Positions 139 through 52,253 of a DNA stretch of 64,000 nucleotides are shown piece after piece. Under the pieces are notes generated by a model, which was given only the letters and a program-made list of their open reading frames with translations, did no database searches and had not been told where the DNA came from. The stretch's first letter is position 1. Each line of letters starts with the position of its first letter. Location of the stretch: contig JAJFGU010000016.1 in the NCBI GenBank assembly GCA_021775955.1, forward strand, positions 4,721 through 68,720. Reading direction: 5' to 3'. The translations under genes and the position numbers were made by a program. Origin of the DNA: Alphaproteobacteria bacterium (GTDB taxonomy: Bacteria > Pseudomonadota > Alphaproteobacteria > Micavibrionales > Micavibrionaceae).

Positions 139-2823
139 TTATTTTTTTAAAATCGGAATGGTCATTGGGTAAAAACCCTCTTCACTAAATTCCTGTTGTT
201 CCGGTACATAAAGGCGGATATTGCCCTGAAACCCATCGATGACGTCTTTTTTCTTAAAATCCAGCTTTACCCCGCCATCAGAGCGGTAAATGCCGGAGTC
301 TTTGCTGGTTTCTTTCAGCACAACATCAAAACCTTTTTTCGGTTTTTTCTCGGGTTCTACCCGCACCGTGATTTCATCCTGGCGTCTTTTGCAATTCATA
401 TCGCTTGTGACCTCGATCCAGATCTTGTCACCAAGCGCGAACATGCCGTCCGGCGATTCCTTAAAGCCTTCATTAAGCGCCGTAACGTATCCCGCATGTT
501 TCCAGATTGGATCAAGTTTTAACCATTGTGCTTCACCAGCAAAAAACTTTTCGGGTAACAGGTCAAGGTGACTGGGACGATGGCCATCATCGAGTTTGCT
601 AATACAATAATTTTTATCACAATATTCAGAATTAATAACGGGTTCAAACCCGCCGGTAAGATTAGGCGGGAGATCATAATCCAGCATCTGGTGCGTCATA
701 TTGGCCAGCTCATGCTGATAGGCTTGGCCCAGAGCGGGAGTCGGATTAACAAGATAGCCCTGCGGCGTGCCCTTGCTGCGCGTACCTTTAACGGTTGCCT
801 TGGGGCCGAGGCTAATCAGCTTATCGATCATGGCATCGCTGACACCACCCCCTATCCAGTTGCGAAGAAAGCCGCGATCCGCCTTTGTATAAACATGCTC
901 CAGATCTAATTGATCGCCCTTCAATGTGCCTTCATAGACCATATAATCTTTACCGCTATAAATCGTGGCACTCACCTTGCCACCTTTTTCCTGAACAACA
1001 GCTTCATTCTCAAAAAGCGGATGCACGGCCCAGCATTCCCCGTCCGTGACCGGTGCCAATGCCTGTTTTTCGCCGCATAGCTTACCGTCTTTCTGGCGCG
1101 CCGTTATCTTTGTTTCAGAGGCGTGTTTTGCCAGCGCTTTCAGTTTTTCCTGTAACGGGAAATAAATGATGTTCGGATCGACTTCCTGTGAAAGCTTTGC
1201 GCGCAGCTCTTTTAGTGAAGGGTTTGCTGCTTCCGGCAAGGTACTAATTTTTGATCCAAGGCATTTCAAGAACGCTTCATAGGCAGCGTTCATTTCCTTA
1301 TGATAGGCCTTATAGGCAACATCGATTGCATCCTGATTTTTGTTGTAAACAGCCAGCGCCGCTTTGCGCTCTTTTTCAATTGCAGGCAGTAAGGCATCAA
1401 TTTTATCCCACGCCGCCTGCCGCGCCGCTTCGGTTTCTTTTTCCCGTGCCTGTAGAATTTCAAGACTTTCCAGCTTGTTCAGACGCGCCAGCTCGGCTTT
1501 ATATTGCGTGCGCTTATCAGCATCCGGGGCGGCAGTAGCCAGATCTTCTAATTTTGAACGGTTTTCCGCCAAACTCTGCGCATCGAGCAGATCATCACGC
1601 ACACGTTGCAGCGCCTGGTGGTGCTCTGCAGCCTCTACCATCGCCACACGCCACTCTTCGCGTTTGGCTTCCAGCTTGTTTTCGGCCGCCCCATTTTCGG
1701 CTTCCAGCTTTGCGACGGCCTTTTCACGTTTGGCTTTAGCACCTTTTTCCGCCTGCTTATGCTGTTTACTGCATTCGCTTTCGCGGAATTTGGCTTTGCA
1801 GCCCGTAGCCAGTTTTTTAATCCGGTCGGCAAGATCGCTCACCTTGCGCTGGCGCTCCTGTGCCATGCCAATAGCAACACCGCCAAACATCTCAGCAAGA
1901 CGCAGGTCGCGCTGCGCAGCAAAAGTATCGTCAAGCTGCACCATGGCTTCTTCAAGGTGACGGCGCTTACCCGCCACCAGCGGTTCCATCAAGGCATTGA
2001 CCACTGCGCGCGTCACGATCTGTACGGCCTTGGATACCGTGGCTTTTGGGTCTTTACCCACTACTGCCGCGCCCAGCTTTTTCGTCAGTTTGCCTGTTTC
2101 GCCAACGCCCACAATCCGGACACTGCCGATTTGCGAACTGACAGAGCCGATAAAACTATCGCCGAAGCTTCCTTTTGCTGTTCCGGCAGTATCCTGCCCC
2201 AGCTTGCCCAATGCTGTTTTATGTTCCAAAGCCAGATCAGCACCCTGATTGACGCTGTAATTAATGAGGGACGCATAGGTATGTTGCAAAAATCTTTCCG
2301 CGTTGCCGGCGGCTCCTTGCGCATCGCCTGTTAAATAGCTCACCGTAATCCCGGCCGTCAGATGCGCGGCGCGCTGCGTTAATTCCAGCACAAATAAAGC
2401 GTTTTTCATTTTGGACATTTCACCCTGCAGACCTTTAGCTTGGGCGATCGCGGCAAATTTCTGGTTACGCGCGAGATTTTCAAGCTCTTCTTGCGCGATG
2501 CGGGTCATGGACACAGACAGATTAGTGGCCTCCAGCGACTGATAAATCTGCTCGGCCAGTTTTTCAATTTTCGCACAATCAAGCTTGACGCATTTCTTGT
2601 CATCCTTGATTTGGTTTTTCGCACCCTGAAACTCTTTTTCGAGCCTTTTTACTTCAGACTCCAGCGCGTCCAAATGCTGGTCGACAATTTTGACTTCCTT
2701 GGTTGTTTCATCAACCCAGGCGGCATAAAGAGAGTTTTTGAAATCACCCGCCATAGCCGGATTGCTAAAAACTAATGCCGTGAAGAGCCATACGGTTGCT
2801 AATAAGCGCATGATTGTATCCAT
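139..2823 (-). CDS. Large secreted coiled-coil-rich protein, function unknown
   Basis: 894-aa ORF. The N-terminus MDTIMRLLATVWLFTALVFSNPAMA looks like a signal peptide. Long charged heptad-like stretches follow (EAENGAAENKLEAKREEWR...), then a globular Cys-containing C-terminal third. I recognise no family motif. Confidence 0.6.
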   Translation of the reverse strand: MDTIMRLLATVWLFTALVFSNPAMAGDFKNSLYAAWVDETTKEVKIVDQHLDALESEVKRLEKEFQGAKNQIKDDKKCVKLDCAKIEKLAEQIYQSLEATNLSVSMTRIAQEELENLARNQKFAAIAQAKGLQGEMSKMKNALFVLELTQRAAHLTAGITVSYLTGDAQGAAGNAERFLQHTYASLINYSVNQGADLALEHKTALGKLGQDTAGTAKGSFGDSFIGSVSSQIGSVRIVGVGETGKLTKKLGAAVVGKDPKATVSKAVQIVTRAVVNALMEPLVAGKRRHLEEAMVQLDDTFAAQRDLRLAEMFGGVAIGMAQERQRKVSDLADRIKKLATGCKAKFRESECSKQHKQAEKGAKAKREKAVAKLEAENGAAENKLEAKREEWRVAMVEAAEHHQALQRVRDDLLDAQSLAENRSKLEDLATAAPDADKRTQYKAELARLNKLESLEILQAREKETEAARQAAWDKIDALLPAIEKERKAALAVYNKNQDAIDVAYKAYHKEMNAAYEAFLKCLGSKISTLPEAANPSLKELRAKLSQEVDPNIIYFPLQEKLKALAKHASETKITARQKDGKLCGEKQALAPVTDGECWAVHPLFENEAVVQEKGGKVSATIYSGKDYMVYEGTLKGDQLDLEHVYTKADRGFLRNWIGGGVSDAMIDKLISLGPKATVKGTRSKGTPQGYLVNPTPALGQAYQHELANMTHQMLDYDLPPNLTGGFEPVINSEYCDKNYCISKLDDGHRPSHLDLLPEKFFAGEAQWLKLDPIWKHAGYVTALNEGFKESPDGMFALGDKIWIEVTSDMNCKRRQDEITVRVEPEKKPKKGFDVVLKETSKDSGIYRSDGGVKLDFKKKDVIDGFQGNIRLYVPEQQEFSEEGFYPMTIPILKK

Positions 2824-3062
2824 TCCTATCGAAAATTTTTATTGACAGAACGTTACACTTATTTTTCAAGAGGATAAAGTGACTCTTTACTTCAATTATG
2901 TTCCACCATTTTCTTTCTCTATCTCTATACAGAAAACCCCTATTTAATTATTGCTCAAAATCCTAGCATTTCTGCGCATGTATTTTCTATGGTTTATCCA
3001 TACAAAAAACTAATGATTTAGGAATGAGTAATGTCCGCTTTGGGTCGTTTGCGGACTTACAA

Positions 3063-5144
3063 TCAAATCGCCTTCACGATATGCTTCGCATTCAGCCCGG
3101 CCTGTTCGTATTGCTCGAGTGGGATGTCGTGATCCTGGAAAATATCGGGCAGGTGCATGGTTTTGACGCGGCAGGAGCCGAGCAGGTTTTCATTGTTCAT
3201 GAATTCGAGCACGAAGGAGCCGAACCCGCCGCGCGAGCCTTCCTCTATCGTGATGAGGGTTTCGTGGTTTTTCGCGAGGTCTTTGATGAGCTCTTCATCC
3301 AGCGGTTTGGCAAAACGCGCATCGGCGACCGTGACGGAGATATTTTTCTGCTCCAGAATTTTTGCGGCGAGGAGGGCTTCACTTAAACGCGCGCCGTAAG
3401 AGAGGATGGCAACGTCGCCAGAGATGTCATTTCGAGCGGAGCGAGAAATCTCACGATTATCGGGAGATCCCTCCGCCTGCGGCGTTCGGGATGACAGAGA
3501 GGTGGAATGAACAATCCGCCCCTTGCCGATCTCTAAAATTTCACCGATCTCCGGAATCTCCACGCCCGTGCCTTCACCGCGCGGGTATCGGAATGCAATC
3601 GGGCCGTCATTATACGCCGCCGCGGTGGCGACCATATGGGTGAGCTCGGCCTCGTCACTGGCAGCCATCAGCACAAAATTCGGCAGGCACCCCAAATACG
3701 CGACATCAAACGCGCCGGCATGGGTCTGGCCGTCGGCACCAACCAGCCCCGCGCGATCAAGCGCAAAACGCACGGGTAGATTTTGAATGGCCACATCATG
3801 AACGATCTGATCATAGGCGCGCTGTAAAAACGTAGAGTAAATCGTGGCGAAGGGTTTGAACCCTTCCGTGGCCAGACCGGCGGCAAAGGTCACGGCGTGC
3901 TGCTCGGCGATACCGACATCAAAACTTCTCTCGGGAAATTCTTCGGCGAACAAATCCATCCCCGTGCCGTCGGGCATCGCGGCGGTGATACCGATAATCT
4001 TTTCGTCCTTGCGCGCTTCTTTAATCAGGCTTTGCGCGTAGACTTTGGTATAGCTGGGCGCGCCGGGTGCGCTTTTGGCCTGATCGCCGGTGATGACATC
4101 GAATTTCTTGACGCCATGCATTTTACAGGCGGCGTTCTCGGCGGGCGCGTAGCCCTTGCCCTTTTTGGTGATGGTATGAATGAGGACGGGGCCTTCGTGG
4201 TGCGCCTCTTTGACATTGCGCAGGATGGGCAAAAGATCGTCAAGGTTATGGCCGTCAACCGGGCCGATATAATAAAAGCCCATATCTTCAAACAGCGTGC
4301 CGGAGCTGCCCTGTTCGGGGGTGAAGGTCATGCGCGCGGTTTCCTCGGCGCGTTTGGCGGCAAAGCGGATCGGCTTTGGCAGATATTCGGTGATGCGCTT
4401 GCCGATCTCGCGCGCGGACATATAGGGTTTGGAGGACACAAGGCGCGCGAGGTAGCTTGCCAGCGCGCCGACCGGCGGGGCGATCGACATTTCATTGTCG
4501 TTGAGGATGACGATGAGGCGCGACTTCATTGCGCCCGCGTTGTTCATCGCCTCGTATGCCATGCCCGCGCTCATCGCGCCGTCACCGATAACGCAGATGA
4601 TGTTGTTGTCATTATCGGACAGGTCGCGCGCCACCGCCATGCCGAGCCCGGCAGAAACGGATGTGGAGCTATGCGCCGCGCCGAAGGGATCAAATTCGCT
4701 CTCGCTGCGCTTGGTGAAACCGGACAGCCCGCCACCCTGACGGAGTGTGTGGATGCGATCGCGGCGGCCGGTGAGAATTTTATGCGGGTAGCATTGATGC
4801 CCGACATCCCAGATCAGCTTGTCTTCGGGCGTGTTGAAAATCGCGTGAATGGCGACGGTCAGCTCGACCACGCCAAGGCCCGCGCCGAGATGCCCGCCGG
4901 TTTTGGACACCGCGTTGATGGTCTCAGAGCGCAGCTCACCGGCGAGAATTTTTAGCTCATCGTCTTCGAGATGTTTGAGATCGGCGGGGGTGGTTACCAG
5001 ATCGAGCAGGGGGGTTTTGCTGGTTTTTTTGTCCAGGGCTTTCTTGTTGTTTTCCCCGCGCAAGCGGGGATCTTCCGTGGAAGCGTCCCTAAGGTCCCCG
5101 CCTTCGCGGGGAAGACAGTCTTGTGTTTTCTGTGCCTGGGTCAT
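3063..5144 (-). CDS. dxs: 1-deoxy-D-xylulose-5-phosphate synthase, carrying two repeat-derived in-frame segments
   Basis: Dxs hallmarks are present: GHxGx[63 protein letters not shown]. The extra N-terminal ~30 aa and an internal ~27-aa insert both coincide with repeats. Confidence 0.95.
3426..3495. repeat. 70-bp imperfect palindrome GTCATTTCGAG...CGGGATGAC (family B, short form) inside dxs
   Basis: Direct reading. Arms GTCATTTCGAGCGGAGCGAGAAATCTC and GAGATCCCTCCGCCTGCGGCGTTCGGGATGAC flank an 11-nt centre. A related copy lies at 53791-53866. Confidence 0.85.
5050..5115. repeat. Cluster of GC hairpins (family A): CCCCGC-gcaa-GCGGGG, CTTCC-gtg-GAAG, CCCCGC-cttc-GCGGGG
   Basis: Direct reading at 5054-5069, 5072-5084 and 5096-5111. 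The same hairpin type occurs at 21467-21527 and 50608-50650. It lies within the first ~32 codons of the dxs ORF. Confidence 0.85.
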
Positions 5145-5157
5145 GGGAAGTATTTAT

Positions 5158-5184
5158 AACCACGAAGACACGAAGGCACAAAGG
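5158..5184 (-). repeat. Phased word-triplet arm facing the dxs start (gene-sense CTTTGTGc CTTCGTGt CTTCGTGGTT)
   Basis: Plus strand reads AACCACGAAGACACGAAGGCACAAAGG. Period is 8 bp. It is followed (gene-sense) by ATAAATACTTCCC and then ATG at 5144, with no SD. Confidence 0.8.
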
Positions 5185-5230: not shown

Positions 5231-5716
5231 TCATGAACGCCTGGAGAAGCTACCAAAGTAGACCATACAGAATATGGTGCCGGCTAATGCGCCGTATGCA
5301 ATAGTCCAAAGTATCCTTTTAAATAAGACGATATAGCCACAAGACGTTCGTACGTTATTTTCAATGATTTGGCATCCTTGCCCATAAAAACTGTAAGTGC
5401 TGTCTTCTGGGCCTCCCCAGGGTATGGATGTGATTTCAAGAATAAGTTCAGGTATTAAAGAAATAAGGATAGCAAAGGGTATTACATATAAAGGCCTTAG
5501 GAGGTTGTAGGATTTTAAGACGAAGTATAAAGGTGCTGCAAAAACTATAATCAATACCCATGAGACAATTAGGTTACTTACAAAAAAAAGAACACTGCGT
5601 TTGATAAATTCAGGATCAAAAGTCCATAAAAAACAGGGAAGAACAGGAGCTAATAAAAATGCCAAAAATAGCCGGACTCTCGTCCCCTTATTAGCACCTT
5701 CCTGTTGTTGCGCCAT
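5231..5716 (-). CDS. AT-rich polytopic membrane protein, unknown function
   Basis: 161-aa ORF with about 4 hydrophobic helices (LFLAFLLAPVLPCFLW, VSWVLIIVFAAPLYFVL, YVIPFAILISLIPELIL, WTIAYGALAGTIFCMVYF). It is visibly lower in GC than its neighbours and starts 11 nt after the ispA stop. Confidence 0.5.
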   Translation of the reverse strand: MAQQQEGANKGTRVRLFLAFLLAPVLPCFLWTFDPEFIKRSVLFFVSNLIVSWVLIIVFAAPLYFVLKSYNLLRPLYVIPFAILISLIPELILEITSIPWGGPEDSTYSFYGQGCQIIENNVRTSCGYIVLFKRILWTIAYGALAGTIFCMVYFGSFSRRS

Positions 5717-6685: not shown

Positions 6686-6766
6686 AACGCAAAGTTAGAC
6701 AAAGTTAAACAAAGTTTCATTTTTTCTTTGTGCTCACTTTGTCTGACTTTGTTTTACTTTGCGGTT
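6686..6766. repeat. Inverted pair of phased arms built from the word CAAAGT/ACTTTG (3 units + 4 units, 9-nt centre)
   Basis: Left arm 6686-6716 is AACGCAAAGTTAGACAAAGTTAAACAAAGTT. Right arm 6726-6766 is CTTTGTGCTCACTTTGTCTGACTTTGTTTTACTTTGCGGTT. Period is 10 bp. Confidence 0.85.
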
Positions 6767-6839
6767 TAAAAATAATCTGCATTTATCAGCTTTATCTGCT
6801 TGCCCGCCATAGCTTTAGCGACGGCGGGTGGTTTCATTC

Positions 6840-20536: not shown

Positions 20537-21409
20537 CTAATCCGCGGCCAGATCCACCAGCCGGGATTCCACGAAATCGGCGGTGAAGGCGATGAGTTTC
20601 TCGATATCACCCTGTAAAGCCTCATAATCCCCTGATTTTTCGTGTCGGTCCTCATCCATATACAGCGATTTGTTGATCTCGAGCTGTAGCGAATGGCGGC
20701 CACGCGAGGGCTGGGAGTGGCGGGCGATCAGCTCGACCCCCTTGAACGGGTCGTTAATCGTGACGCTATAGCCCAGGCCCTTAATGAAATCACGCAAACT
20801 ATGGGTGAAATCCTTGCTACAGGTGGTGCCGTCACGGTCACCCAGGCAAAAATCCACCGCCTTATTGCGATTGCCGATCAGGCCGATGGCCTGGCGCGGG
20901 CGGGCGCTGCTGGACGGCATCGAATGGCAGTTAATGTGCCAGATTTGGCCGAAATTGTAATGCGCCTCGTCGACCAGCTTTTGCAGCGCGTCATGATAGG
21001 GGTGATAGTAATGCTCTATGCGGTTTTGCACCTCCTGCACGCTTAAATGCCGCTCATAGACCGGCACGCCGGGTTTGACCAGCCGCCGGATCAGCCCAAT
21101 CCCGGCATCGCTGCGCGCGGTGGGGTTGGAGTCTTGCGGCCAGTCCTGCTCCAGCAAATCATGGTCGATATCACAGGCGGCGCGGTTGGGGTCGATATAG
21201 CTGCGCGGGAACAGCGCGCAGAGCAGGGCGCCGCCGTAACCTGGCGCACAGGCAAAAAGATCGTCGACATGCTTGTCCTCGGCACGCTCCAGCGCTTCAA
21301 AGTCGCAGGCATAGTCAAAGTCTTCGGGGTAGCGCGTGCCGCTATGCGGGCTGTCAAAGATCAGCGGCAGGGGATTGTCAGGCTTTGAAATGGTGAAAGT
21401 TTCGGACAT
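20537..21409 (-). CDS. N-formylglutamate amidohydrolase family protein
   Basis: 290 aa. LIFDSPHSG, DPNR and WHINCHSMP match the FGase (PF05013) pattern as I remember it. Confidence 0.8.
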   Translation of the reverse strand: MSETFTISKPDNPLPLIFDSPHSGTRYPEDFDYACDFEALERAEDKHVDDLFACAPGYGGALLCALFPRSYIDPNRAACDIDHDLLEQDWPQDSNPTARSDAGIGLIRRLVKPGVPVYERHLSVQEVQNRIEHYYHPYHDALQKLVDEAHYNFGQIWHINCHSMPSSSARPRQAIGLIGNRNKAVDFCLGDRDGTTCSKDFTHSLRDFIKGLGYSVTINDPFKGVELIARHSQPSRGRHSLQLEINKSLYMDEDRHEKSGDYEALQGDIEKLIAFTADFVESRLVDLAAD

Positions 21410-21420
21410 TTTTATATTTT

Positions 21421-21569
21421 AACCGCGAATGGACACGAATACACACGAATTTTTTCTTTTTGCTTTCCCTGCGAAAGCAGGGATATTTAAAAACAAACAC
21501 AACAAACAGATCCCCGCCTACGCGGGGAAAGCACTAATTATTTGTGTTCATTCGTGTTTATTCGTGGTT
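21421..21569. repeat. Dyad-symmetric cassette: outward phased arms (word TTCGTG) around two GC tetraloop hairpins
   Basis: Left arm 21421-21450 is AACCGCGAATGGACACGAATACACACGAAT. Hairpins are CCCTGC-gaaa-GCAGGG (21467-21482) and CCCCGC-ctac-GCGGGG (21512-21527). Right arm 21541-21569 is TTTGTGTTCATTCGTGTTTATTCGTGGTT. Confidence 0.9.
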
Positions 21570-21591
21570 CTTTTTGCTTTATGTTATTCCG

Positions 21592-22860
21592 ATGTTCGAT
21601 ATTAAAGCCATACGGGAAAACCCGGACGAGTTTGACAAAGGCTGGGCCAGGCGGGGTCTGGAGCCGCAGACGGACGCCATTTTGAAGCTGGATGAGGAGC
21701 GGCGGGGTATTCAGACCGAGCTGCAGGAGCTTCAGGCCGAGCGCAATGAAAAATCCCAGAAAATCGGTGAGATTAAAAAATCCGGCGGCGATGCAAAGGG
21801 CGCTATGGATGAGGTCGCGGCGCTGAAGGATAAGATGGCAGAGCTGGAAGAGCGCGAACGCACGGTCGCTGAGTCTTTGAACCAGCATCTGGCCGGTCTG
21901 CCGAATATTATGGCCGATGATGTGCCGGACGGTAAAACCGAAGATGATAATGTTGAAGTTCGTAAACACGGCGAACCTTCAAAAGACAAAGTACCCGAGC
22001 ATTTTGAAATCGGCGAAGTTTTGGGCCTGATGGATTTTGAAACGGCCGCGAAAATGTCGGGCAGCCGTTTTGTGGTGCTCAGCGGCGGGCTGGCACGGCT
22101 CGAGCGGGCGCTCGGGATGTTTTTCCTTGATGTGCATACGGCAGAGCATGGCTATATGGAAGTTTCGCCGCCGCTCATGATTAAAGATAATGCGATGTTT
22201 GGAACCGGACAGCTTCCGAAATTTGCGGAAGATCAATTCCGTACCACGCGTGATGACTGGTTGTTGCCAACGGCTGAAGTGCCGCTGGCCAATATGGTCG
22301 CGGATTCAATTGTTGAGGATGATACTCTGCCGCGGCGCTACACCGCCTTTACACCATGTTTCAGACAGGAAGCCGGGGCGGCGGGCAAGGACACGCGCGG
22401 CATGATCCGCATGCATCAGTTTTACAAGGTCGAGATGGTGTCCGTCACCACGCCGGAAGAGTCTGAGGCCGAGCATGAGCGCATGACCAAATGTGCTGAA
22501 ACCGTTTTAGAGAAGCTGGAGCTGCCGTTTCGGACGGTGATGTTGTGCAGTGGTGATACAGGCTTTGGCGCGCGCAAGACCTATGACATTGAGGTCTGGC
22601 TGCCGGGGCAGGGGCGCTACCGCGAGATTTCATCTTGTTCAAATTGCGGGGACTTCCAGGCGCGGCGCATGAATGCCCGCTATAAAAATGCGGACGGGAA
22701 GAATGTTTTCGTCCACACATTAAACGGCTCCGGCGTTGCGGTTGGCCGCGCGCTGATTGCGGTGATGGAGAATTATTATGACCCGGCCGATGGCGGGATT
22801 AATGTCCCGGATGTTTTGAAGCTCTATATGGGCGGGGTGGAGAAGATTACATCTTCTTAA
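21592..22860 (+). CDS. serS: Seryl-tRNA synthetase
   Basis: [11 protein letters not shown] starts the N-terminal coiled-coil arm, and class II motifs are present ([29 protein letters not shown]). The start is moved to the ATG at 21592. Confidence 0.95.
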
Positions 22861-33814: not shown

Positions 33815-33865
33815 AACGGTTCTCCTTGGGTAGCTCTTCTTGCAAAAATTATTGAAAGGTTTTTT

Positions 33866-34045
33866 ACCACAGATAAACACAGATAAATACAGATTTTTGT
33901 AACGAAGATACGAAGTAACGAGGAAATATAAATAAAACTTCGGATCTTCGAAACTTCGTTACATATTAAATATTTAAATCTTCTTTTTTATTATCTGTGT
34001 CTATCCGTGTTCATCTGTGGTTTTTAAATTTTTTAATTTGTGGTT
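33866..34045. repeat. Nested cassette: outer phased arms (word ATCTGTG) enclosing an inner inverted pair of arms (word CTTCG), plus an extra GTGGTT box
   Basis: Outer left arm 33866-33894 is ACCACAGATAAACACAGATAAATACAGAT. Inner left 33899-33923 is GTAACGAAGATACGAAGTAACGAGG. Inner right 33936-33962 is AACTTCGGATCTTCGAAACTTCGTTAC. Outer right 33993-34022 is ATCTGTGTCTATCCGTGTTCATCTGTGGTT. A second GTGGTT lies at 34040-34045. Confidence 0.9.
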
Positions 34046-49800: not shown

Positions 49801-50550
49801 CTAGGGCTTAATTCCAGAGTGAATGGCACAAATTCCGGCAGAAAGGTTTGTAAAACCGGCGGTTTCCAGTCCTGCAGCCTTCATACGATTGGCCAGGTCT
49901 TTTTGTTTGGGGAATTTGCGGATGCTCTCGACCAAATATTGATAGCTATCCTTGTCTTTTGCAATGATTTCACCGATTTGCGGGATAATCTTAAATGAAA
50001 ACAGATCATAAGCTTTTGCTAGAAGAGGTTCTTCTACATGACTGAATTCAAGACAGAAAAACCGCCCACCGGGTTTAAGCACCCGCGCAGCCTCTTTTAG
50101 GGCTGTGTCTATATGGGTGACGTTTCTAAGGCCGAAGGCGATGGTATACACATCAAAGGAATTATCCGGAAAGGGCAGGGTTTCGGCGTTTCCGGTGATC
50201 CACTCAAACCCGTCGAGCCAGGCTTTGTCCGTCGCGCGGTCACGCCCGACATCCAGCATTTGCTGGTTTAGGTCACAAATTGTGATCTCAGCATCCGGCG
50301 CTTTCTTCTTGATACGAAAGGCAATATCGCCTGTGCCGCCGGCCACATCGAGATATTTGAGGTTGCCACGCGGCCTTATCATCCGCACCAGCCGGTCCTT
50401 CCAGAGGCGATGAATGCCGCCGGACATCAGATCGTTCATGAGGTCATAGTTATCGGCAACGGAATCAAAGACCCCGCGCACAGCCTGCGTTTTTTCATCG
50501 GGGGAGACGTGTTTCTCGCCGAACCATTCTTTTTCAGGGTTTGCGCTCAT
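49801..50550 (-). CDS. ubiE: Demethylmenaquinone/ubiquinone C-methyltransferase
   Basis: VF..VA..YDLMND.MS.G.HR.WK, DVAGGTGD, and FGLRN. Confidence 0.95.
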   Translation of the reverse strand: MSANPEKEWFGEKHVSPDEKTQAVRGVFDSVADNYDLMNDLMSGGIHRLWKDRLVRMIRPRGNLKYLDVAGGTGDIAFRIKKKAPDAEITICDLNQQMLDVGRDRATDKAWLDGFEWITGNAETLPFPDNSFDVYTIAFGLRNVTHIDTALKEAARVLKPGGRFFCLEFSHVEEPLLAKAYDLFSFKIIPQIGEIIAKDKDSYQYLVESIRKFPKQKDLANRMKAAGLETAGFTNLSAGICAIHSGIKP

Positions 50551-50561
50551 AAGGCTTTATA

Positions 50562-50700
50562 AACCACAGATAGACACAGATAAACACGGATTATTCTTTT
50601 CTGTTTTCCCCGCGTAAGCGGGGATCTAGTAAGATTCCTGCTTTCGCAGGAAAAGCAGCGCTACATTTTTATCTGTGTAAATTTGTGTCCATCTGTGGTT
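50562..50700. repeat. Dyad-symmetric cassette: outward phased arms (word ATCTGTG) around two GC tetraloop hairpins
   Basis: Left arm 50562-50590 is AACCACAGATAGACACAGATAAACACGGA. Hairpins are CCCCGC-gtaa-GCGGGG (50608-50623) and CCTGC-tttc-GCAGG (50637-50650). Right arm 50671-50700 is ATCTGTGTAAATTTGTGTCCATCTGTGGTT. Confidence 0.9.
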
Positions 50701-50711
50701 AAAACAACTTC

Positions 50712-52253
50712 ATGAAACTTATCAAAGCCATGGCAACGGTGGCGGGGCTGACGGGGCTCTCGCGCATCGCAGGATTTATCCGTGATATCATGACGGCGGC
50801 CATTTTGGGCGCGGGGCCGGTGGCCGACGCGTTCTTTGTCGCGCTTAAATTACCCAATTTCTTCCGCCGGGTGACGGCAGAAGGCGCGTTCAGCGTGTCT
50901 TTCGTGCCGCTTTATTCTGAAGCGCTCGAAAAGGAAGGCAAAGAAGAAGCCAACAACTTCACCCTCAATGCATTTTATATAATGCTTTATGGGTTGGGAG
51001 CGACTAGTCTTCTGGCGCTCTGGGCGATGCCATGGGTGCTTTACGCCGTTGCGCCGGGTTTTATTGGCGATGAAGTGCGCTACGATTTGGCGGTGGAGAT
51101 GGCGCGCATCACCTTTCCTTATTTGCTGTTCATGTCGCTGACGGCCTTGCTCGGCGGGGTGTTGAATGCGCTGGATAAGTTCGCGCCGTTTGCCTTTGCC
51201 CCGGTGCTGTTCAACGTGACTTTAATCGCCGCGCTGCTGATGAGCGATATGGCGCAGACGGCTGGTCATGCCATGGCCTGGGGGGTATTGGTGGCTGGCG
51301 CGCTGCAATTTACCTGGCTGGTTTTTAACGCGCGCAAAGCCGGGGTGCGTTTACGGTTCAAAAGACCCGTTTTTGATGTGAAGATCAAACGGCTCTTTAA
51401 GCTGATGGGGCCGGGGGTCATTGGCGCCGGGGTGATGCATATCAATCTCTTCGCCGACCTTATTATAGCGTCATTTTTGGCAACCGGGTCAATTTCGTAT
51501 CTGTATTATGCCGATCGTTTGAACCAGCTGCCCCTCGGCATGGTCGGGATTGCGGTTGGCACGGCGCTGCTTCCTATGCTCTCGCGCACTTTGGCCGCAA
51601 AAAAGACGGATGAAGCGCGTGACTTGTTCAACCGGGCCTTAGAGTATTGCTTGTTGCTGGCGCTGCCTGCAGCGCTGGCACTGGCGATTATCCCGCTGCC
51701 GCTGATAACGATTTTGTTCGAGCGCGGTGAGTTTTCGCAGGAGGACAGCTTGCAAACCGCGCTGGTGTTGATGGCCTATGCGATCGGGCTGCCCGCCTAT
51801 ATTACGGTTAAGGTATTTTCGACCGCGCACTGGGCCCGCCAGGATACAAAAACACCGGTGAAGATTGCCGTGGCCGCGACGGTGACCAATATTGTGCTGA
51901 GTTTAATCCTAATCTGGTATATGGGCGTGGTCGGGATTGCGCTGGCCACCGGACTGACGGGCTGGATGCAGTTTTTTGCGCATATCCAGGCGCTTAAAGA
52001 CCATGAGGCGGCGCGCTTCGATACGCAGTTCAAAGGGAACATACCGAAGATCATTGCTTCTACTTGTGTGATGGGGCTGGCACTTTATGGTGCGTCTCAG
52101 ATGCTTGAGGGCTGGATATACAGTGGCGGCGTGCAACAGATCGCTGCGCTTTTGGCGCTTGTCCTTGGCGGGGTGAGCGTTTACGCTGTGTGCGTTCTGG
52201 CAACTGGAGTGATTAAGCTTCAGGACGTAAAGAGATATTTGGTTAAGGGTTAG
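50712..52253 (+). CDS. murJ: Lipid II flippase MurJ
   Basis: SRI.GF.RD, AF.VA..LPN.FRR..AEGAF, 14-TM class, 513 aa. Confidence 0.95.

Follow-up and report, generated by a model that had tools for sequence, protein, structure and literature searches.

The spacer between an FGase-like gene and serS in a Micavibrionaceae contig (JAJFGU010000016.1) raises a simple question: why do the two inverted arms of this spacer repeat one sequence word, when a similar spacer between ubiE and murJ in the same window repeats another? The window is the whole 64,000-nt stretch analyzed, and these 64 kb are the host sequence covered. The original prediction offered two answers, concerted evolution of the arms within a locus and distinct subfamilies of one mobile element. 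Our analysis favors the second. The cassette beside serS (C1) is probably a gene-less, nonautonomous, REPIN-like copy, of foldback type, of a widespread repeat family, and the symmetric spacers of the window are most likely resident repeats and not a dedicated regulatory code. The interesting result is the repeat family itself and its tie to GxxExxY nuclease genes.

The FGase-like open reading frame (ORF) (20537-21409, minus strand, ATG at 21409; PF05013 type with a weak hutG match) and serS (21592-22860, ATG at 21592; TIGR00414 match from residue 1, 499 bits) are separated by 182 nt. All parts of the predicted layout were found in place: the FGase ATG, 11 nt, a left arm, two hairpins with 6-bp stems, a right arm, 22 nt, and the serS ATG (Table 1). 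Each arm is 30 nt long and consists of three 10-bp units (ATTCGTGT..), and the arms are mutually inverted. Repeat finding recovered them as a 30-nt inverted repeat, 80% complementary and 89 nt apart, together with an inner 24-nt inverted repeat that spans both hairpins. Allowing up to two mismatches, CACGAATNNNCACGAAT matched four times in the window, always in C1 (0.55 expected; 0 of 100 shuffles reached 4). As single-stranded DNA, C1 was predicted to adopt a structure in which the arms pair with each other and two hairpins form locally (-34.8 kcal/mol, z = -7.2). The terminal GTGGTT, described earlier as conserved, is general, but the left arm of C1 ends in GCGGTT.

C1 is one of four cassettes in the window (C1 to C4), each of 81-158 bp. 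C2 (33865-34022) lies between sodB and an HpnD-like gene and C3 (50562-50700) between ubiE and murJ. Both carry the ATCTGTG word, and all 8 window matches to CACAGAT fall within these two cassettes (0.31 expected). As predicted, C3 combines this word with a hairpin pair homologous to that of C1. C4 (6686-6766), newly found by fuzzy searching for arms and by scanning for 10-bp periodicity irrespective of the word, separates xseB from ispA in the conserved gene row xseB-ispA-dxs; the periodicity scan detected no other 10-bp-periodic, non-low-complexity segment in the 64 kb. The centres of C1, C2, C3, and C4 measure 89, 98, 79, and 20 nt; that of C2 is one long hairpin unrelated to the C1 centre, and that of C4 lacks hairpins. 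One consensus, MTYYGTNTNN twice followed by MTYYGYGGTT, fits every arm in the window. Words do differ between loci, as had been claimed, but they are not discrete: CT, CC, TC, and TT are variants of ATYYGTGT one transition apart, and ATTTGTG units are present in both C1 and C3.

A genome scan with the arm consensus, using one genome per species, placed these cassettes in a much larger family. The arm pattern, which samples ATYYGTG-type words only and fits the C1 arms with 0 and 1 mismatches, occurred at at least 120 loci from more than ten phyla; the statistics below hold among the matches listed. Labelled taxa include Verrucomicrobiota, Planctomycetota, Acidobacteriota, Cyanobacteria, and Alpha-, Beta-, and Gammaproteobacteria, with Nitrospirae, Chloroflexota, Bacteroidota, Firmicutes, NC10, and others besides. 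The matches also include Scytonema sp. HK-05 (AP018194) and the OZ245880 chromosome, closed genomes with both cassettes and GxxExxY genes, and an Akkermansia-labelled MAG contig (L052). IMG/VR viral contigs contributed at least 114 stretches with the pattern, holding 245 arms and 43 cassettes. With fuzzy arm calling, 77 of 119 adjacent arm pairs among the matches listed ran minus and then plus, with GTGGTT facing outward as in C1. What defines the family is an inverted pair of arms that face outward; each arm has about three 10-bp units (AT-YY-GTGT-NN) and terminates in GTGGTT, often in GTGGTT-TCA, and the palindrome often reaches TGA-AACC...GGTT-TCA. Gene-less centres (77 cassettes from other genomes) are 5-205 nt long and have no common sequence. 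The TC (ATTCGTG) and CY (ATCYGTG) types each recur in several phyla, and the window stands out only in that several subfamilies stand side by side in it, as they do in the metagenome-assembled genome (MAG) behind loci L009 and L021. No paper describing the arms or linking GxxExxY to flanking repeats was found, which does not prove the family undescribed. Searches with 10- and 13-mer arm strings returned primer coincidences only, and searches combining PDDEXK, inverted repeats, and MITEs (miniature inverted-repeat transposable elements) returned nothing relevant.

The family is linked to genes for GxxExxY proteins, a link absent from the original prediction. Six cassettes among the matches listed had centres longer than 210 nt, and five of these (375-555 nt; L011, L053, L055, L094, and L114) held a single ORF, GxxExxY each time. 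The encoded proteins matched TIGR04256 with 143-145 bits (cutoff, 35; E = 1e-42) and PF13366 (PDDEXK_3). A sixth GxxExxY gene (L024) lies between two short cassettes, and the 162-nt centre of L108 is a truncated GxxExxY N terminus. In plus-oriented cases the start codon falls inside an arm or at its inner edge (L055 and L114, ...AGATGAACAC(A/G)GATGA..., which reads MNTDE; L094, ...CACGAAT-G), while the stop codon abuts or overlaps the other arm. The association was also tested in reverse, starting from 80 metagenomic GxxExxY genes retrieved by protein profile, 75 of them with both flanks, and from controls shifted by 800 nt. Inverted flanking arms (score of at least 16) were found around 35 of the 75 genes and around 0 of 95 shifted controls. 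These arms use further words (CGCAGAT, CGCCGAT, CGCTGAT, CACCGAT, CGCAAAT, and CACGCAGAA), with one word on both sides of a gene, in some cases matched unit for unit (L175). For 17 of 41 GxxExxY genes, the 5' arm had the gene's own 3' arm as its best or tied-best partner, and the mean partner score was 23.7 for own arms and 11.4 for foreign ones. Arm-encoded N termini, such as MNTDEHRLN, MEPQMNADERRLN, and MEPQMNADERR.., were present in 85 of 116 close homologues. A rough ordering on the GxxExxY proteins indicated that arm words change faster than the protein.

Conservation in GxxExxY proteins is at least 90% at D71, E81, and K83, the last of which never varies. The AF2 model (pLDDT, 92.9) has as its nearest PDB folds the lambda-exonuclease, Cas4, and Hjc-type PD-(D/E)XK nucleases, with weak scores, and a PDB sequence search with the GxxExxY profile gave no homologue. 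The gene-bearing form with family arms encodes a small PD-(D/E)XK nuclease with no known transposase activity. A published table (PMC3424549, entry 114) gives the function of GxxExxY as "Unknown" and notes multiple transfers. The papers examined on GxxExxY, PDDEXK_3, PF13366, and TIGR04256 describe neither a function nor flanking repeats.

The matching of words between arms was measured in 76 cassettes from different species. Left and right majority words were CT-CT in 33, CC-CC in 15, and TC-TC in 15, and TC was never paired with CT or CC. Unit-level word identity between arms was 0.69, compared with 0.30 after shuffling (z = 10.4), and the spacer bases of the units also matched slightly above expectation (z = 3.5). 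The near-diagonal table refutes random pairing of left and right words, and the covariation that had been proposed from two loci is real. Together with the multi-phylum distribution and the recurring TC and CY types, it gives good support to the proposal of distinct subfamilies of one mobile element.

The same matching could also arise in cis, if pairing of the arms in a cruciform or single-stranded hairpin, with mismatch correction or conversion and slippage of units, homogenized the word of each locus. Several observations fit such a process: the strong predicted fold of the cassette, the unit-specific variants mirrored around GxxExxY genes in L175, and a 30/30 palindrome in L009 whose CC/CT/CC units are mirrored in both arms while a neighboring cassette has CC/CC/CC. 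In 14 loci with at least two cassettes, own-arm identity (26.0/30) was not above cross-cassette identity (26.2/30, p = 0.62). Same-side arms of different copies were more alike than the arms of one pair in 21 of 26 within-locus pairs (p = 0.002): left-left plus right-right identity was 54.1/60 in the better relative orientation, against 51.2/60 for own left-right. The other relative orientation gave 50.5, so the selection bias from choosing the better one is small. All three cassettes of L240 combine a left ATCTGGG with a right ATCAGTG, and those of L024 combine a left ATTAGTG with a right ATTCGTG. Since these asymmetries are common to the copies, the copies descend from asymmetric masters, and the word is a subfamily marker. 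Complementarity of the arms, moreover, averages 87.5% and is perfect in only 3 of 76 cassettes. Word matching is thus mainly explained by subfamily descent within a repeat family, and the earlier suggestion of concerted arm evolution as its main cause was not supported; we consider it unlikely.

The homologous centres of C1 and C3, which carry different words, could likewise be read as one element whose arms had been rewritten in cis. The centre of C1, once reverse-complemented, aligns to that of C3, and the two have blocks CCCCGCGTARGCGGGGATCT and CCTGCTTTCGCAGGRAAAGCA in common. A third convergent hairpin pair of the same kind (5054-5111) is not enclosed by arms; it is found either upstream of dxs or within the 5' end of that gene, beside the solo arm-like repeat of Table 1, and the module is absent from cassettes of the other genomes examined. 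Because of these two findings, the hairpin module is a separate, genome-specific small repeat in a shared niche and not a defining part of the cassette. Conservation of the central hairpin pair, which had been part of the original prediction, does not extend to the family, where centres are unrelated between genomes. The notion that C1 and C3 are whole-element paralogues, based on their common centre, is weakened by the occurrence of the module outside cassettes. Partly similar centres do occur among copies within one locus (L311 and L263).

Relatives were compared at the orthologous sites, with a mixed outcome. The window's own serS protein has no exact counterpart on record. For serS and murJ, the best-matching relatives come from uncultured Alphaproteobacteria or from Micavibrio-like MAGs (75-82% identity). 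Three of them (serS identity, 80-82%) keep the divergent FGase-serS pair with spacers of 45, 43, and 87 nt, and two of these three carry a degenerate solo arm, AACCACAG(A/G)T..., with a CT word, at a window-like distance from the FGase start. On these comparisons the element is old at the FGase-serS site, and the window copy either kept the full form while its word changed or replaced an earlier copy. At ubiE-murJ, one relative has the cassette, another has it in degenerate form, and a third lacks it. The first (75% MurJ identity) has it in the matching place, with the same short flanks and the CT word, around a 225-nt centre unrelated to that of C3. In the second, degenerate arms in the ubiE-murJ spacer (L321, 2144-3000) surround a 244-aa ORF with no Pfam match. 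Orthologous sites keep their arms even as the centres are exchanged, and this points to arms that are either constrained or continually renewed.

Constraint of this kind would be expected if the cassettes were host regulatory modules, with phased 10-bp operator or activator sites, or promoters of flanking and possibly leaderless genes, conserved through housekeeping control. The window itself gives this idea some appeal. Three of its four cassettes lie between divergent genes with arms 11-52 nt from start codons, a 10-bp phase would put sites on one face of the helix, -10-like hexamers precede the ATGs of FGase, ubiE, murJ, and serS by 5-6 nt, and the ubiE-murJ arms and short flanks, but not the centre, are kept at 75% MurJ identity. 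The wider distribution argues otherwise. Gene-less cassettes are placed in tandem (25), divergent (8), and convergent (7) contexts, roughly as expected for random intergenic positions, so the symmetric placement between divergent genes noted for C1 is not general, and no family-wide preference for divergent promoters was seen. Arms are found in over ten phyla and among viral contigs, form tandem arrays (L024, L042, and L091), and flank and partly encode GxxExxY genes. C4 sits within an operon, a search of 21300-21700 gave no sigma-70-like promoter, and relatives whose spacer is a cassette-free 43-45 nt express FGase and serS. We regard such a regulatory module as improbable.

A/T-rich, -10-like hexamers (TAAAAT, TATGTT, TATAAA, and TAAAAC) were read directly outside GTGGTT, in the regions 21395-21420, 21565-21594, 50545-50565, and 50695-50714. 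FGase, serS, ubiE, and murJ lack a Shine-Dalgarno sequence; sodB and the hpnD-like gene have one. These features suggest that transcripts of the former four genes are leaderless and start at the arm edge, and an effect of the cassette on FGase or serS expression is possible. The C1 region has a single weak terminator-like site, on the minus strand.

Complementary arms could also act in RNA, as an RNase III site, a fold-back silencing the GxxExxY mRNA, a small RNA, or a terminator, with words maintained by compensatory changes. Long stems are predicted, and the 5' arm of full-length elements holds the start codon and sometimes the Shine-Dalgarno sequence, which pairing with the 3' arm would occlude. 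The 23S rRNA intervening sequences, whose small ORFs are bounded by RNase III stems (PMC4990558), provide a precedent. Selection on RNA pairing should favor G-U pairs on the transcribed strand, and none of the tallies showed this. Around GxxExxY genes there were 63 G-U on the sense strand and 53 on the antisense strand (p = 0.40), gene-less cassettes had no per-cassette strand bias in wobble (p = 0.43), and over all cassettes wobble-type mismatches numbered 94 and 81 compared with 110 others, transversion-type changes being as common as wobble-type ones. With no G-U enrichment on either strand, the complementarity is a strand-symmetric property of the DNA. Rfam searches at gathering score, covering the window and 20 loci, returned tRNAs only, no rRNA match was found in the loci searched, and where a cassette sits between divergent genes, it is not obvious what transcript would cover both arms. 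We therefore hold a function in RNA to be very unlikely.

Subfamily descent within a mobile repeat family can be put in mechanistic terms. The full-length form is an element of about 450 bp with a single ORF for a GxxExxY protein of about 120 aa with a PD-(D/E)XK nuclease fold; its 5' arm encodes the start codon and first 5-10 or so codons, and the stop codon abuts the 3' arm. The word (TC in C1, CT in C2 and C3, and CTTTGT in C4) is a subfamily marker: the arms would be copied as a pair from a master element and would both inherit its word, so that words match within a locus and differ between loci. Within genomes, cassettes would spread by replication, and between phyla they would pass horizontally. 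The GxxExxY nuclease may act on the arms, either mobilizing cassettes in trans or homing into them, and its interaction with the arms may maintain them; we infer that such nuclease-dependent copying or homing takes place at the level of DNA. RAYTs have been proposed to mobilize REPINs in trans in a comparable manner. A bolder version, which we put forward tentatively and regard as doubtful, is that the GxxExxY gene and its 10-bp-unit arms form a previously unrecognized class of selfish element of about 450 bp. Its nuclease would recognize or cut its own arms, as duplex or cruciform, and copy into gene-less cassettes or mobilize them in trans, giving REPIN-like populations in more than ten phyla and in phages, with the word as a specificity code coevolving with the nuclease lineage.

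A number of observations count against descent by nuclease-driven copying, and we collect them here. Neither the 64-kb window nor the sister loci nor the 114 viral loci yielded a GxxExxY gene, and a nuclease cognate to the window cassettes is therefore putative. Arms also flank ORFs other than GxxExxY (L321, L289, and L224, of which L224 and L289 are viral). The flanks of 70 cassettes contained no direct repeat indicative of a target-site duplication, the palindrome instead extending by 2-3 bases (TGA..TCA); no clean empty site was seen; and no recent insertion was caught, the copies examined being old. Centres within one genome are often unrelated (L009, L038, and L051), which requires rapid centre turnover or insertion into the loop. 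At the serS site, the CT word of the relatives' remnant and the TC word of the window require replacement or conversion; this difference would also fit homogenization in cis. The perfect palindromes of L009, with their cassette-specific variants, hint at a symmetrizing process, and some symmetrizing or ectopic conversion is possible. Finally, the taxon labels are MAG and viral predictions, in which misbinning is possible.

The features of the window are listed in Table 1.

Table 1 Arms, centres, and related hairpins in the 64-kb window
Feature	Coordinates	Strand	Sequence and context
C1 left arm	21421..21450	-	AACCGCGAATGGACACGAATACACACGAAT; outward on the minus strand ATTCGTGTGT ATTCGTGTCC ATTCGCGGTT; TC word; outer edge 11 nt from FGase-like ATG
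C1 centre hairpin 1	21467..21482	.	CCCTGC-GAAA-GCAGGG; copy of genome-specific module YTTTCCCYGCG-GNRA-like loop-GCRGGGAT
C1 centre hairpin 2	21512..21527	.	CCCCGC-CTAC-GCGGGG; module of hairpin 1 in opposite orientation
C1 right arm	21540..21569	+	(A)TTTGTGTTCATTCGTGTTTATTCGTGGTT; units ATTTGTGTTC ATTCGTGTTT ATTCGTGGTT; 22 nt from serS ATG
C2 left arm	33865..33894	-	ATCTGTATTT ATCTGTGTTT ATCTGTGGTA; sodB side
C2 right arm	33993..34022	+	ATCTGTGTCT ATCCGTGTTC ATCTGTGGTT; HpnD-like gene side
C3 left arm	50562..50591	-	ATCCGTGTTT ATCTGTGTCT ATCTGTGGTT; 11 nt from ubiE ATG
C3 centre	50608..50651	.	CCCCGC-GTAA-GCGGGG (50608-50623) and CCTGC-TTTC-GCAGG (50637-50650)
C3 right arm	50671..50700	+	ATCTGTGTAA ATTTGTGTCC ATCTGTGGTT; 11 nt from murJ ATG
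C4 left arm	6686..6715	-	Plus strand AACGCAAAGT TAGACAAAGT TAAACAAAGT; third word, ACTTTGT/CAAAGT
C4 right arm	6736..6766	+	ACTTTGTCTG ACTTTGTTTT ACTTTGCGGTT
Third convergent hairpin pair	5054..5111	.	CCCCGC-GCAA-GCGGGG (5054-5069) and CCCCGC-CTTC-GCGGGG (5096-5111)
Solo arm-like repeat	5158..5184	-	8-bp period; AACCACGAAG ACACGAAG GCACAAAGG (AACCACGAAGACACGAAGGCACAAAGG); upstream of dxs

Several further observations concern the window. An exact 13-nt direct repeat, TTCTTTTTGCTTT, occurs just inside the left arm of C1 (21454-21466) and again at 21568-21580, the second copy starting within the final two bases of the right arm. This repeat does not enclose the element as a whole and could be a duplication footprint from the addition of the right half beside an older solo arm. 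C4 comes after a hairpin resembling a terminator, at about 6803-6829. For the solo repeat upstream of dxs, no partner arm was found. The dxs ORF called from the ATG at 5144 traverses both hairpins at 5054-5111, and the Dxs model begins only at residue 43-49, so that dxs may have a different true start or an N-terminal extension. Six-nucleotide tandem repeats (GCAAAA/TTTTGC) occupy positions 74-119 at the start of the window. No RAYT was seen in the window, and an origin as a Neisseria-type uptake sequence or Correia-like element was rejected, GCCGTCTGAA being at chance level.

Arms are also arranged in other ways elsewhere. In L024, a Nitrosomonas MAG, arms of the same orientation form an array with about 173-nt spacing (10-720), and four cassettes with a fixed asymmetry of ATTAGTG versus ATTCGTG follow at 1277-3412, where the GxxExxY gene lies between two complete cassettes. 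The flanks of the L051 cassette (5355-5484) are themselves inverted repeats (CACCAAGGACGACGG ... CCGTCATCGTCCTTGGTG), which puts the cassette in the loop of a larger hairpin. Tandem arm types with an 8-9-bp period stand beside 10-bp arms in L289 (3050-3700) and L266 (1441-1837) (ACCACGAAGG ACACGAAGGG ACACGAAG; CACGCGGAGGCGCAGAGGGCGCGGAGA), and their sequences suggest a wider set of related repeat types.

GxxExxY/PDDEXK_3 genes are very abundant, multicopy, and without an assigned function, and the tie to a DNA partner gives them a testable role. Gene-less cassettes number in the hundreds and would add a second nuclease-plus-hairpin-repeat system beside RAYT-REPIN. For annotation, the family explains conspicuous palindromic spacers beside housekeeping genes and also the unusual N-terminal extensions seen on GxxExxY proteins; small ORFs that are spurious and whose peptides resemble ICVHLW or IRVHPW, read from the sequence, would be translated arms.

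Known systems share parts of this architecture. Eukaryotic foldback (FB) transposons have inverted arms of short tandem subrepeats, a variable loop, and a gene in some copies. The cassettes resemble them in arms, loop, and occasional gene, but FB elements are eukaryotic, kilobase scale, and encode different proteins, and the analogy is one of architecture only. In compact insertion sequences (ISs), the ORF starts in or next to the left inverted repeat and stops at the right one, much as the GxxExxY ORF starts at one arm and stops at the other. The element described here differs in its 450-bp size and its 120-aa nuclease-fold protein, with no DDE, HUH, or serine/tyrosine recombinase. To our knowledge, 450 bp is far below the size of any autonomous IS.

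Bacterial MITEs (Correia, ERIC, RUP, and Nezha; PMC3184786) are likewise small, noncoding, intergenic, multicopy elements with terminal inverted repeats (TIRs), often beside gene starts; MITEs are variably present between relatives, as the cassettes may also be. Unlike them, the cassettes showed no target-site duplication and have no parent IS with a known transposase, their centres are not conserved among copies, and their TIRs are internally repetitive and conserved across phyla, not within a genus. The 23S rRNA intervening sequences (Coxiella, S23p; PMC4990558) are selfish inserts of about 400-450 nt with one ORF of about 120 aa and complementary ends; the cassettes are intergenic, have a different ORF family, and lack an RNA signature, so that this too is analogy only.

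The architecturally closest known system is REPIN-RAYT, in which REP doublets form hairpins and are paired with a REP-associated tyrosine transposase (Bertels and Rainey, 2011, PMC3116915; 10.1101/2021.07.10.451892). Both systems consist of short, inverted, hairpin-forming doublets scattered in intergenic DNA, with one small gene flanked by its own inverted repeats, sequence subfamilies, long persistence at orthologous sites, and no target-site duplication. They differ in the flanked gene, which here encodes a PD-(D/E)XK protein of about 120 aa (GxxExxY/PF13366) and not an IS200/IS605-like Y1 HUH transposase, and in the repeats, which here are arms of three 10-bp units where REPs are GC-rich palindromes of 20-30 nt. 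The arm here encodes the protein N terminus. GxxExxY genes are multicopy and horizontally spread (PMC3424549, table entry 114), whereas RAYTs are typically single copy (PMC5581495), and the family described here spans many phyla and viral contigs.

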